A DNA stretch of 62,165 nt, the filler included, from Candidatus Delongbacteria bacterium (GTDB lineage Bacteria > UBA4055), in assembly GCA_016937995.1 (NCBI GenBank). It is 3 parts of 3 records of this genome, joined end to end, with 100 filler letters (N's around TTAATTAATTAA, not from the genome) between each part and the next. Parts side by side here need not be neighbours in the genome. Positions count along the whole stretch, not along the records: positions 44,377 to 62,165 come from JAFGVM010000068.1; 2 more parts are not named here. One strand, given 5' to 3'. The notes under the pieces were generated by a model that saw nothing but the letters and a program-made list of their open reading frames with translations, did no database searches and was not told the DNA's origin. Positions within the stretch are counted from its first letter, which is position 1, and each line of letters starts with the position of its first letter. The translations under genes and the position numbers were made by a program. Positions 3,574-45,836 of the stretch are shown here, one piece after another.

Positions 3574-5058
3574 ATGAATGTGGATACTGCTTTAAAAAAC
3601 AGCATAAAAAAGAACATCAATGATCTGATGGATTCTTCAGCAGATTATGTCGATGTAAGGTATTTGTTAAATGATGATTCTGAATCCATAATGCTTTATA
3701 ACGGAAATCTCGAATCGAATGATACTACTTTCGAGAGTGGTCTTGGAGTCAGAGTTTTATACAAAGGTACCTGGGGATTTGCAGCAACAAGCAATTTGAA
3801 CTCGATAGAAAATTGTTTTCAACAAGCTTTTCATAATGCAAAAACAGCAGCTTCTTTAGTTAAAGTACCTCTTTCCATGGGGAAGAAAGAACCACACATA
3901 AGTAATTTTAAATCTCCGGTTAAAATTGATCCGTTCACTGTTCCTCTCTCGGAAAAATTAGCTTTTTTAAACAAGATAGATGAGCAATTGAAAGAGGAAT
4001 GGATATTGCAGAGAATCGTAAGAGCTGACTTTCAAAAAAAGATATCTCTATTTCTAAACAGTGAAGGTACTGAAGTTGAACGTGAACTATACAATGTTTT
4101 TGCATCAATTAACATAATGGCTCTTGATAATGAAGGTCAAATGCAGAACAGAACTCATGATCTCTTTACAACGGGAAACGGTACAAGAGGATGGGAAATG
4201 TTAATTGATCCAGATCTGTTCAGTGGAAATATTGAAAGAATAAAATCAGAGCTTAAGGAATTGACAAAAGCTGATTCGCTGGAGTATGGAAAAAGAACTG
4301 TTATACTTCTACCGACACAGGCCTGGTTACAGGTTCATGAGACTATCGGGCACCCTCTTGAGTTGGACAGAATATTAGGATATGAACTTTCATATGCAGG
4401 TGGTTCCTTTGTTGATCTTGATTCTTTTGGCAAATTACAATATGGAAGTAAAAAGCTGAATGTGAGTGCTTATGGCAGTATTGAAAATTCTCCCGGTTCA
4501 TTTGGTTATGATGATGAGGGTTCACCTGAAAGAGATTATATGCTTATAAAAGACGGCATACTGGTAAATGCATTAACTTCAAGAGCAATGATAAATGAAG
4601 CCAATCAAAAAGCCGGCAAACAGATATTTAAAGAAAGTGGCGGTGCCGCCAGAGCAACAGCATTCTACAGAGCACCTATAGACAGAATGACGAACGTAAA
4701 CATACTGCCGGGAAGTGATGGAACACTTGAAGATATTATAGCCGGAACCGAGGATGGTATAATCGTTGATTATCCAAATTCATGGTCGATAGGTTCAAAC
4801 AGGGAACATTTTCACTTTGGTTGTGAGATCGCCTGGGAAGTTAAGAAAGGAAAGATCACCAGGGTATTAAAAAATCCGACTTACCAGGGACATACAATAG
4901 AATTTTATAATTCATTGTCAGCAGTCGGTGACAGATCCACATGGCAGGTCGGCCAGGTAGATAATTGTGGTAAAGGTGAACCTAACCAGGTAATGCAACT
5001 TGGACATGGTGTTCCTGTAGTTAAGTTTGATAATGTAATTACCGGAGAGAGGAAATAA
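3574..5058 (+). CDS. tldD: TldD family metalloprotease subunit
   Basis: HExxGH motif VHETIGHPLELDR, RMTN and the C-terminal CGKG motif. Confidence 0.9.
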   Translation: MNVDTALKNSIKKNINDLMDSSADYVDVRYLLNDDSESIMLYNGNLESNDTTFESGLGVRVLYKGTWGFAATSNLNSIENCFQQAFHNAKTAASLVKVPLSMGKKEPHISNFKSPVKIDPFTVPLSEKLAFLNKIDEQLKEEWILQRIVRADFQKKISLFLNSEGTEVERELYNVFASINIMALDNEGQMQNRTHDLFTTGNGTRGWEMLIDPDLFSGNIERIKSELKELTKADSLEYGKRTVILLPTQAWLQVHETIGHPLELDRILGYELSYAGGSFVDLDSFGKLQYGSKKLNVSAYGSIENSPGSFGYDDEGSPERDYMLIKDGILVNALTSRAMINEANQKAGKQIFKESGGAARATAFYRAPIDRMTNVNILPGSDGTLEDIIAGTEDGIIVDYPNSWSIGSNREHFHFGCEIAWEVKKGKITRVLKNPTYQGHTIEFYNSLSAVGDRSTWQVGQVDNCGKGEPNQVMQLGHGVPVVKFDNVITGERK

Positions 5059-5060
5059 TC

Positions 5061-6434
5061 ATGATAAATGAAAAAATAAAGAATATAATAATAGAATCCA
5101 GAGATATAGCTGCCGAGAAAAAATTACAGGCATCATTTTTGCTACATTATGAGAACAGTCACTTAATGAGGATCGGGAATAATTCGGTATCTTTGAGCAC
5201 ATCAGAAGAATTGTTCAGACTGGATATAGTTGTAACTATCGGATCTAAGCAGGGGTCACATACACAACTCGGTGACATAAGCTCAATTGATCAAATATTA
5301 AGATCATTGGAAATAGCAGAAGAAAAAGCAAAAGTGGCGAATGACAAGGATTATACTCCGATCGAAGATATTGTTGATGAAGAGGTCAAAGAAGAATCCC
5401 AGTATGACAGTGATTTTGAAAAATTATCACCTTCTTTTAAAGCTCAAGCTTACGCAGAAATATTTAATCAGGTAGGAGATAAATATAATTATTCCGGATC
5501 ATGGTCAAGTGGATATACAGAGCAGTTCATTGCCACTACAAATAACAGAAATACTGCATATCATAAAGGTACTGACCAATTATTCAGCATTGTTCTTAAA
5601 CATCCAGAGAAACACTGGGAGATAACTTCGTCTCAAACAGGCTGGAGGAAAGATGACTTTTCTGTTGAATCTGTTATAAAACAACTGAAGGAATATGTTG
5701 AATATTATGAAAATCTTCAACCTGTTAAAATTGAACCTAATAAATATACAGTTGTACTCGGTCCACAGGCGATTGCAGAAGTAATTGAGATGGCCATTTA
5801 TACCGGATTCTGGGGAAGAATTTATGAAGAAAAGCAGGGATGGACCTCTAATAATAAATTCGGAGACAAAATTTTAGGTGAGAACATCAGCATCTGTGAT
5901 GATCCTGCGAACGATAATACATTTAAGTTTAAATTTGATCTTTCGGGACAATCGAGAATTAAGAGAATGCTTGTTGAAAATGGGATATTCAAAGGACTAA
6001 TGTATGATCCGTCCACAGCAGCAAAATTCAATAAGCAGAAAACCGGACATAATATCAGATCTTCAAGTATTTCAGTGAAATGCGGTGATGGAGAAGAATG
6101 CCCTTTAGAAGCAGTAAAAAGTTTAGGAGATGTATTATATATACCTGCGCTTCATTATATAAATCTGCCTAACATCAGCAAAGGTATTTTTACAGGCAGT
6201 TCACGATTCAATGCTCTTTATGTTAAAGATGGAAAAGTAGTTGGTCCTATATATTCTTCAAGAATAACAGATACTTTTCAAAATGTGTTCGGAGATGTTG
6301 CAAAAATTTCTAAAGCGGATATTTCTGTTAATCTGTCGAATACATACGGGCGTAGAGCTCCGGTAGCATCGAGTGTTCCTAAATATATGGTATGCCGGGG
6401 TGTTAAAATAACAGACAGTGCGGATAGTTTTTAG
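5061..6434 (+). CDS. TldE/PmbA family subunit
   Basis: Starts 2 nt after tldD. PmbA/TldD C-terminal patterns (YTVVLGPQA, ISICDDP, LVENG). Lacks HExxGH, as expected for the non-catalytic partner. Confidence 0.8.
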   Translation: MINEKIKNIIIESRDIAAEKKLQASFLLHYENSHLMRIGNNSVSLSTSEELFRLDIVVTIGSKQGSHTQLGDISSIDQILRSLEIAEEKAKVANDKDYTPIEDIVDEEVKEESQYDSDFEKLSPSFKAQAYAEIFNQVGDKYNYSGSWSSGYTEQFIATTNNRNTAYHKGTDQLFSIVLKHPEKHWEITSSQTGWRKDDFSVESVIKQLKEYVEYYENLQPVKIEPNKYTVVLGPQAIAEVIEMAIYTGFWGRIYEEKQGWTSNNKFGDKILGENISICDDPANDNTFKFKFDLSGQSRIKRMLVENGIFKGLMYDPSTAAKFNKQKTGHNIRSSSISVKCGDGEECPLEAVKSLGDVLYIPALHYINLPNISKGIFTGSSRFNALYVKDGKVVGPIYSSRITDTFQNVFGDVAKISKADISVNLSNTYGRRAPVASSVPKYMVCRGVKITDSADSF

Positions 6435-27635: not shown

Positions 27636-27735
27636 NNNNNNNNNNNNNNNNNNNNNNNNNNNNNNNNNNNNNNNNNNNNTTAATTAATTAANNNNNNNNN
27701 NNNNNNNNNNNNNNNNNNNNNNNNNNNNNNNNNNN
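27636..27735. other. Artificial contig linker (44 N + TTAATTAATTAA + 44 N)
   Basis: Exactly 100 nt, stops in all six frames, identical to the linker at 44277. Confidence 0.97.
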
Positions 27736-44276: not shown

Positions 44277-44376
44277 NNNNNNNNNNNNNNNNNNNNNNNN
44301 NNNNNNNNNNNNNNNNNNNNTTAATTAATTAANNNNNNNNNNNNNNNNNNNNNNNNNNNNNNNNNNNNNNNNNNNN
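44277..44376. other. Artificial contig linker (44 N + TTAATTAATTAA + 44 N)
   Basis: Same structure as 27636-27735. Confidence 0.97.
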
Positions 44377-44489
44377 TTTATTGTTCGGTCATACCCTTTA
44401 TTTCAAAGAAACTTCTTTTTACTTTTTGAAAAAGAAAAAGAAGCAAAAAGAAAAGTGTAAAAGTGTAAAAGAACAAAGTGTAAGCTACG

Positions 44490-44650
44490 CTATTTAGTCC
44501 TCGCAATACGAAACCCGCCGTAGGAGTTCCTGCCGCCGGGGTCGTTGCCGTTGCGGTCAGAAACTTTGCAGCCGGCGTCGAGGTTGCCCCACGACCCGCC
44601 ACGAACAACACGGCACTGTCCCTGCGTGTACCAGTCCCAGCACCATTCCC
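44490..44650 (-). other. Putative DGR variable region (VR)
   Basis: About 64% GC over 44501-44650 (96/150 by hand count). 20 of the 24 codons between GGSW and GFR end in C. Confidence 0.72.
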
Positions 44651-45836
44651 AAACATTTCCACTCATATCATGAATTCCTAGCTCATTAGCTCTTTTTGTA
44701 GCTACGGGTTGTGTCTTTGATCCGGAATTTCCATCATACCAAGCAACATCACCGACATCATTACTCCCACTATAAGTGTTTCCTCTGCTCTGATTTCCGC
44801 CCTTAGCCGCATACTCCCATTCAGCCTCTGTCGGCAAACGGTAACCGTTCGCTTTGAAGTTACAATTCGTACTTTTTCCGCTTCCCGAATAGCACTTTGT
44901 CAATCCTTCCATTTCACTCAATTTGTTGCAGAACTCAACAGCATCGTACCAGCTTACTTGCTCGACAGGTAAGTTATCTCCTTTGAAATTACTCGGATTA
45001 TTGCCCATTACAGCTTTCCACTGAGCTTGGGTCACTTCCGTTTTACCTATATAGAAATCGCTTCTGGCATATACCATATTCGATTTTATTTCACTTATAG
45101 CATATCTGTATTTATTTTTAATTTCTGCTATCCGCCTTAACTCTTCTGCATTTCTCCTTTCTTCTTCAGTTTTTTTATCATTCCTCAATTTCTTCTCTTC
45201 GTTGCTGAGCAATGCCGTATATTTGCTGCTTGGATAATAAATTTTGAATTTATCGAACTCCGGTGAAAAATTATTCATATATTTATCAAGAGAGTCAAAG
45301 TATTCGTTAACACTTTGTCCATACGGTAACAAAAACCACTTCATATATAAATAATGCGCTTGTTCCGCCAAATCTGTGTTTGTATCATTCATCAGCTTTA
45401 TAATTATTTGCTTTGATTCTTCTTTTTTGTCTTGTTCAAAAATGTGCTTTGCATATCGCAGTTCTTTGAATGTGATATCTTCTTCTACTGTAGATTTAAC
45501 TTTTCCTACAAGAACTACCGAATAAGTGCCGTCAGACCCGTACCCGTTGTCTATTATCTGGAATCCCGGCATCAGAACTGTCTCTGCTTGTGTTTCAATG
45601 TAATCGTAAGTGGTCTGGAAGTTTTCAACTTTCGTAGTGGATTTGAGTTTCAATCCCGCTTTTTCAAGAGCTTGACGTTTTGCGTCCATTATAGCTTCCT
45701 GCCTGTCTTTCTGCTCGCCGTTCTTGTAATTGTCGCTTACTCCTCTTACAGCTACATCTACAAGGGCTTGTGCTTTTAATAGTGTGCTGAAAATTAACAA
45801 TGTCACAAATAATAGTTTCAGGATATTTTTACTCAT
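44490..45836 (-). CDS. Secreted LPP20-like + FGE-sulfatase (CLec-fold) protein; probable DGR target
   Basis: Signal peptide and FGE-sulfatase motifs KTEVTQAQW, PVEQVSWYDA, YRLPTEAEWEYAA, DMSGNVWEWC, RGGSW and GFR. GC-rich 3' end. Confidence 0.88.
   Translation of the reverse strand: MSKNILKLLFVTLLIFSTLLKAQALVDVAVRGVSDNYKNGEQKDRQEAIMDAKRQALEKAGLKLKSTTKVENFQTTYDYIETQAETVLMPGFQIIDNGYGSDGTYSVVLVGKVKSTVEEDITFKELRYAKHIFEQDKKEESKQIIIKLMNDTNTDLAEQAHYLYMKWFLLPYGQSVNEYFDSLDKYMNNFSPEFDKFKIYYPSSKYTALLSNEEKKLRNDKKTEEERRNAEELRRIAEIKNKYRYAISEIKSNMVYARSDFYIGKTEVTQAQWKAVMGNNPSNFKGDNLPVEQVSWYDAVEFCNKLSEMEGLTKCYSGSGKSTNCNFKANGYRLPTEAEWEYAAKGGNQSRGNTYSGSNDVGDVAWYDGNSGSKTQPVATKRANELGIHDMSGNVWEWCWDWYTQGQCRVVRGGSWGNLDAGCKVSDRNGNDPGGRNSYGGFRIARTK

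Follow-up and report, generated by a model that had tools for sequence, protein, structure and literature searches.

A very probable DGR-type variable region at the 3' end of a putatively secreted lectin gene from Delongbacteria

The target gene and its surroundings

The window, i.e., the whole stretch of 62,165 nt that was analysed, consists of three contigs of a Delongbacteria genome that were concatenated. The joints lie at 27636-27735 and 44277-44376 and are filled by linkers of 44-N runs on either side of a TTAATTAATTAA stop-codon spacer. These linkers are artificial, so the neighbourhood across both joints is not real. The third contig (44377-62165; 17,789 nt) carries the target gene as its first gene, and its edge at 44377 is reached 113 nt past the stop codon. 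Upstream, efp and a gene for a hybrid sensor kinase are found on the same strand. Such neighbours point to ordinary chromosomal DNA. In the closest genomes, efp and the kinase gene are 74-80% identical to those of the window. No orthologous locus showing the DNA past the contig break was found among them: in G002, other genes come after efp, and in G015 the contig stops there. The features of the locus are collected in Table 1. A 94-aa ORF in another frame (44378-44662) was rejected as a by-product of the GC-rich variable region (VR).

Table 1. Features at the target gene and at the adjoining contig edge, with window coordinates
Feature	Position	Strand	Basis
Target gene, 448 aa	44490..45836	-	ORF; Pfam search
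Probable Sec signal peptide, residues 1-24, ending AQA	45765..45836	-	Visual reading of the translated sequence
FGE-sulfatase / CLec-fold domain, residues 259-446	44499..45062	-	Pfam PF03781, E 2.2e-41
VR taken broadly, codons 409-443: constant scaffold codons and variable NNC codons	44508..44612	-	Ungapped alignment to 10 verified TRs; G010 scaffold of the same length
Variable core, codons 417-440, 20/24 NNC	44517..44588	-	Codon count
IMH-like constant end, codons 441-448 and stop	44490..44516	-	Conserved among targets with differing VR scaffolds (alignments A1, A2)
Three TTACAC(T)TTT units, from stop to hairpin	44455..44483	-	Alignment with relatives
AT-rich inverted repeat: ~15 bp stem, short loop, then T-rich run	44411..44444	-	15 predicted pairs
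Last 16 nt of the contig	44377..44392	-	Alignment A2; homologous to the TR-end spot of G010:C51 and the avd-remnant spot of G001:C91
Artificial linker	44277-44376	no strand	N runs 44277-44320 and 44333-44376 flanking the TTAATTAATTAA spacer; not biology

The target protein consists of a signal peptide, a FlgT_N-like domain, a charged helical linker and an FGE-type C-type-lectin domain that ends in the VR. Judging from the putative signal peptide, which was read by eye, the protein is probably secreted. The FlgT_N-like domain (residues 37-107; E 4.5e-5) scored 24.3 bits in the Pfam search, below the cut-off of 28.8. For the C-terminal domain, the best sequence match in the PDB is TvpA, the variable protein of the Treponema denticola DGR (2Y3C; E 3.1e-37), compared with about 1e-7 for true FGEs. 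A structure model of residues 250-448, built from a 25-row alignment, reached a pLDDT of 94.3, and its best fold match is again TvpA (2y3c; E 2.8e-25, TMq 0.89). Hence, the VR is situated at the C-terminus of a C-type-lectin-fold domain of the FGE type (CLec1), as judged from PF03781 and from the likeness to TvpA in both sequence and fold.

In an alignment of the domain with the copper-bound FGE 6muj, Asn 418, encoded by a variable codon, takes the place of the first cysteine in the LCHDSYC pair, and just the second (Cys 423) is retained. We take this cysteine pair to be the catalytic residues of FGE, and the PDB entry titles C336S and C341S agree with such a role. The paired C-terminal active-site cysteines of a catalytic FGE are thus not found in the target domain. 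Given the absence of the first Cys and TvpA as the best relative, the domain is, judged by sequence and modelled fold, a lectin-like binding module and no catalytic FGE. For annotation, this means that the target gene should not be called a 'SUMF1/FGE family enzyme'. The protein cluster of the target has two members, and the other one is an unrelated 33-aa fragment which is uninformative on VR variants.

In the lineage of the window, the lectin-VR cassette has apparently been transferred to a secreted scaffold of another kind. This graft is suggested by N-terminal homologues devoid of the FGE domain, by lectin relatives with other N-termini and by the different genes found after efp in G002. 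The N-terminal 258 aa (45063-45836) have 81 homologues of 265-571 aa in Delongbacteria, Calditrichia, Marinimicrobia and others; none of them (0/81) has an FGE domain, and three have WD40 repeats. As for the lectin domain, its closest relatives are Delongbacteria MAGs, and at all of the 80 closest FGE loci the match of the target is confined to the C-terminal domain. It is 80% identical to the domain of a G010 protein that bears PEGA and CarboxypepD_reg at its N-terminus. The N-terminal partner of the cassette is FlgT_N-like here and a PEGA, fibronectin or short helical domain in relatives. Taken by itself, the N-terminal module (residues 1-258) represents an uncharacterised secreted family with no Pfam domain and some WD40 fusions.

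The variable region compared with templates and copies

An earlier note on this DNA, made from the sequence alone, had pointed out a jump in GC content at the 3' end of the gene in an AT-rich genome. The jump was found again: the GC content is 0.67 at 44528-44627 and 0.59 at 44478-44577, compared with 0.28-0.48 over the remaining gene and 0.345 over the window. The codons listed in that note between GGSW and GFR also read as it had claimed. Of these 24 codons, 20 end in C, compared with a fraction of 0.169 in the 408 upstream codons, and the binomial probability of at least 20 C-ending codons in 24 is 1.9e-12. In a decayed VR in G004, C3 is 0.29 and many codons are of the NNT type, compared with 0.48 over the final 48 codons of the window gene. 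The unworn NNC codons suggest that the VR segment was rewritten recently. Third-position changes between the window and G010 affect 5/40 VR codons vs 20/60 upstream codons (P 0.0025).

The 80 closest FGE loci, with one genome per species, were each compared with themselves for pairs of template repeats (TRs) and VRs. TR/VR pairs with adenine-biased mismatches were obtained at seven of these loci. In Delongbacteria, the MAG G001 has three RVT_1 ORFs with TRs (21/23 and 21/28 mismatches at A), and G014 carries a complete cassette made up of target, HRDC gene, RT and TR. The ten TRs that were verified by A-biased TR/VR mismatches all align to the window VR without gaps over 109-124 nt, and their AAC codons coincide with its variable codons. 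Each of them differs from the window VR by 18-36 non-A mismatches, so none of the ten is cognate to it. In L181 (G014:C16), the VR (~4150-4309) is four codons shorter than the TR (~5890-6045), and the gap faces the AAC run; such an indel is found in some DGRs.

Copies of the VR were available from sequencing runs and from G010. In run X2, which comes from a sister sample, a 397-nt contig has the same 3' end as the window gene and shows 43 differences in all, 27 of which are listed. The listed differences fall within 44514-44578, are distributed over codon positions 1, 2 and 3 as 12, 12 and 3, and are all possible template adenines. A contig with an X2-type internal joint is present in X1, the likely source run, at a depth of 12.7 vs 14.5 for the gene; from these depths, it is probably a paralogue. 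Runs X1 and X2 were compared as assembled contigs, which drop rare variants. The cover by run X3 (share 0.10) is limited to conserved stretches of the domain and does not count as evidence, and neither do the window parts without contig cover.

In G010, a Delongbacteria genome of another species, two genes carry a VR that equals the window VR in length and in its invariant scaffold codons. Their differences from the window at codon positions 1, 2 and 3 amount to 16, 14 and 5 for one gene and to 17, 12 and 8 for the other over 40 VR codons, vs 6, 2 and 20 and 10, 9 and 33 over 60 upstream codons. This contrast between VR and upstream codons is significant for both genes (Fisher P 5.7e-6 and 1.0e-4), and the pattern in the VR is the opposite of ordinary drift. 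VR copies thus vary at adenine-derived positions on a constant scaffold, with 24 of the 27 listed X2 differences at codon positions 1 and 2 and with the G010 counts given above.

A family of 270-281-aa proteins was also observed in three Delongbacteria genomes (L132, 4479-5291; L133, 4712-5554; L160, 2489-3334 and 4390-5223). Its members have a common N-terminus of ~70 aa and end in an FGE part of the DGR type. Two copies, with one gene between them, are present in G015. No TR was found near the family genes in L132, L133 and L160.

The 3' module and the search for a retroelement

Downstream of the gene, the earlier note had reported repeated units, a hairpin and the contig end, and all three are there, with the TTACAC units at 44478-44483, 44463-44468 and 44455-44460. 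The gene's last 27 nt and the following ~110 nt are 86-89% identical in G001:C91. The 3' module is recognisable after eight target genes from six sources, including genes with VR scaffolds of other lengths (alignment A2). The TTACAC(T)TTT units are partially conserved in four relatives, and no tool applied suggested a function for them.

The hairpin lies about 45 nt after the stop codon. Three of the 15 predicted pairs of its stem are G-C, and one pair shows a compensatory change in G004. Strict matches to the hairpin gave five distinct cases among 231 loci, and all five directly follow a GFR-type VR end. The same hairpin comes after the VR in two complete DGRs from other phyla, L024 and L059. 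By sequence, the VR is therefore followed by an IMH-like end and an inverted repeat, the stem being AT-rich and not GC-rich. The IMH/hairpin cis-elements invoked in the earlier note have their counterpart in this conserved end and in the hairpin common to L024 and L059. A sigma-70 and terminator scan found nothing over chance at the hairpin, because the G-C pairs of the stem are too few for the scan. The hairpin may be a candidate DGR target-site element, an intrinsic terminator or both, since the AT-rich stem and the trailing T's make a plain terminator role possible.

A broader reading, which we regard as unlikely, concerns the module as a whole (IMH-like end, TTACAC units, AT-rich hairpin and avd stub). 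It would mark a horizontally spread DGR lineage, in which the lectin-VR-module cassette is grafted onto unrelated N-termini and stays competent at loci without avd, TR or RT of their own. One distant, perhaps mobile, retroelement would then serve many scattered targets in trans via the AT-rich hairpin, in place of the GC-rich cruciform known to date. The conserved AT-rich hairpin module, which is found across phyla and at loci without a retroelement, is the only point that might repay further work.

The cognate retroelement was searched for in the window and in relatives, as well as in genome, metagenome and viral contigs. Within the window, no second VR copy and no cognate TR were found, the best other blastn matches being at most 21 nt long with E values of at least 0.7. 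A cognate TR, i.e., one with mismatches at A only, was present neither in the 231 loci (1.81 Mb) nor in the 15 genomes of the phylum, where a search with the DNA reference returned VR copies only. A scaffold pattern with N at the variable positions had 0 matches in genome contigs and 0 in metagenome contigs; this pattern is too strict for the G010 copies. The pattern of the 3' module matched 0 viral contigs and one metagenome contig, L116, where a remnant with a deletion is present and a TR is missing. In the viral contigs, 40 loci encode relatives that are at most 50% identical, and none of these loci contains a cognate TR. RVT_1 matches occur in 4/15 genomes of the phylum. G003 has a 345-aa RVT_1 ORF, which is similar in size to the RTs of G001 and G014. 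G010 has at least two VRs of the window's scaffold, and neither RT nor TR was found in its assembly.

Remnants were found where relatives carry the 3' module. G001:C91 has a 60-aa bAvd-like stub (E 1.5e-5, below the cut-off) and then a Fic gene at the spot homologous to the contig end. In L116, an internally deleted FGE remnant is followed by the 3' module and then by a Fic gene. In G010:C51, the 3' module runs into a 23-nt piece that matches the 3' end of the G014 TR exactly, and the last 16 nt of the contig (44377-44392) align with this remnant region. Since relatives with the same module carry remnants at that spot, the DNA past the contig break may have decayed as well; it may hold a complete avd-TR-RT, a remnant of one or neither of the two. 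In run X1, a 487-nt contig extends about 197 nt past 44377.

Two further observations were made at these loci. In L130 (G010:C51), the 23-nt TR-end piece is located at ~5985-6010, some 90 nt after the target stop and between tandem target paralogues; the region looks like a collapsed avd-TR region. Moreover, a Fic/DOC gene comes directly after the 3' module in two unrelated contigs, L096 (G001:C91; 1631-2694) and L116 (2-805).

Explanations and known systems

An orphan or fossil VR is a possible explanation, although we consider it less than probable. The segment would formerly have been written by a DGR, avd, TR and RT would since have been lost or have decayed, and a frozen binding site would be left to ordinary mutation. 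Such a history would fit the mere remnants borne by relatives with the same module (the stub in G001:C91, the deletion in L116 and the 23-nt piece in G010:C51), one of which aligns with the very edge of the contig. The three TRs of G001, which are not cognate to its own two module-bearing VRs, and the 11/15 genomes of the phylum without an RVT_1 match point in the same direction. An absent RT is, however, weak evidence, because all the genomes compared are MAGs that fall short of completeness, and because the repeats of DGRs are prone to poor assembly. The state of the VR also argues against a fossil. Its core retains 20/24 C-ending codons vs 17% in the upstream part of the gene, and the G004 copy with its C3 of 0.29 exemplifies what decay looks like. 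Furthermore, third positions and scaffold of the VR are better conserved against G010 than the upstream part (P 0.0025), as expected if both VRs had been refreshed recently from a conserved template.

It is very unlikely that the domain is an ordinary lectin/FGE domain without any retroelement history, which would owe its composition to a GC-rich donor, to gene conversion between paralogues or to diversifying selection. No TR or RT was found for the target gene in the searches described above, and the region is common to many paralogues, so gene conversion is conceivable. A GC-rich donor would nevertheless leave the C third positions and the varying positions 1 and 2 unexplained, and the remaining part of the domain has an ordinary composition. 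The agreement of the variable codons with the AAC codons of ten verified TRs and the DGR-associated hairpin module after the stop also speak against this history, as does the missing first cysteine of the active-site pair of FGE.

An assembly chimera, in which the real VR of one paralogue was joined to the foreign N-terminal body of another at the conserved WEWCWDW, is very unlikely: in the likely source run, the locus is split into pieces of 487, 199 and 17,337 nt with overlaps of only 30 and 16 nt, both in conserved stretches that dozens of other contigs contain, and the module region has a depth of 37.8 vs 14.5 for the gene, but the three pieces match in depth (14, 14.1 and 14.5) with at most three differences from the window, and the cassette, although missing from the N-terminal homologues, is fused to unrelated N-termini in relatives too.

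The preferred explanation is a DGR-target VR whose TR and RT, outside the window, act on a secreted lectin. Taken as a whole, it is held with slightly better than even confidence. That the segment 44508-44612 is a DGR-type VR of the target gene by origin is very probable in view of its anatomy, the fold of the domain, the homology to TRs from related genomes, the way in which copies differ from one another and the conservation of the 3' module. The chances that the segment is still served by a live retroelement are roughly even. We infer that the cognate TR and RT are still present in this genome and act on the target gene.

Under the preferred explanation, an AAC-rich TR elsewhere in the genome would be transcribed and then reverse-transcribed by a DGR RT that misreads template adenines. 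The cDNA would replace the VR up to the IMH-like end, with help from the hairpin that lies 45 nt past the stop codon. The outcome would be NNC codons with the first two bases randomised, and the residues on the binding face of the lectin would change as a result. TR, RT and accessory gene would be located outside the window, either in a non-adjacent element or past the contig break.

Of the interpretation in the earlier note, the part on a VR in a secreted CLec/FGE protein is supported. It agrees with the match to TvpA, the AAC codons of the TRs on the variable codons, the differences at codon positions 1 and 2, and the IMH-like end with its hairpin. The proposed partner element was not recovered, as the searches yielded neither a cognate TR nor an RT or avd for this VR. 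The same note had tied its reading to a TR-like copy or a DGR RT in the genome or its relatives and to polymorphism at adenine positions; relatives do have RTs of the DGR type together with TRs built in the same way, and copies do differ at adenine-derived positions.

The locus adds a secreted DGR-type hypervariable lectin from the uncultivated phylum Delongbacteria. It also illustrates that such DGR targets are recognisable by sequence alone when a fragmented assembly misses the retroelement. Its general interest is modest, as targets of the FGE type, remote targets and decayed cassettes have all been described before; remote targets and HRDC-type cassettes, for instance, are treated by Wu et al. 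(2018; PMC5758913). A full-text search of the literature found no paper naming both DGRs and Delongbacteria.

Several known systems resemble the locus. In the same paper, 71 of the 372 DGRs belong to the FGE-sulfatase/CLec1 class, whose members often bear further domains at the N-terminus, and the Treponema element is described as having an HRDC accessory gene and seven targets that do not adjoin it (PMC5758913). The VR architecture of the window agrees with that of TvpA from the Treponema denticola DGR residue for residue across RGGSW...GFR, and an HRDC-bearing complete DGR exists in the window's phylum (G014). Unlike TvpA, the window protein has a FlgT_N-like N-terminus with a helical linker and comes from a different phylum. 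The cognate TR, RT and accessory gene of the window VR were not found in the window or in relatives.

SUMF1 and the S. coelicolor FGE share the family PF03781 and the overall fold with the target domain. In contrast to TvpA, these enzymes give a far weaker sequence match, and one of their active-site Cys corresponds to a variable Asn codon in the window.

In the Bordetella phage BPP-1, retrohoming is efficient only if a hairpin/cruciform lies shortly after the VR, and IMH and hairpin are sufficient for targeting a foreign gene, according to Guo et al. (2011; PMC3240598). The BPP-1 repeat is described as GC-rich and immediately downstream of the VR in PMC5758913. As in BPP-1, the window has a constant VR end and then an inverted repeat close downstream. 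Unlike in BPP-1, its stem is AT-rich, lies ~45 nt past the stop and has a T-rich run behind it, and a role as a simple terminator is therefore possible. The window target is, in addition, chromosomal, with efp and a sensor kinase gene as housekeeping neighbours.

L024 and L059 are like the window in TR/VR architecture, in their FGE-type target and in the AT-rich hairpin after the VR. Unlike the window, both possess avd, RT and TR, and their TRs have 24 and 23 non-A mismatches, respectively, to the window VR. L059, from a Cloacimonadota MAG, has the order VR, hairpin, avd start and TR, with 24/25 mismatches at A. L024, from a MAG labelled Cytophagia, has a bAvd match (E 1.6e-20), an RT, a TR with 24/24 mismatches at A and a target 5 kb away, and the N-terminus of its Avd resembles the avd stub of G001:C91.
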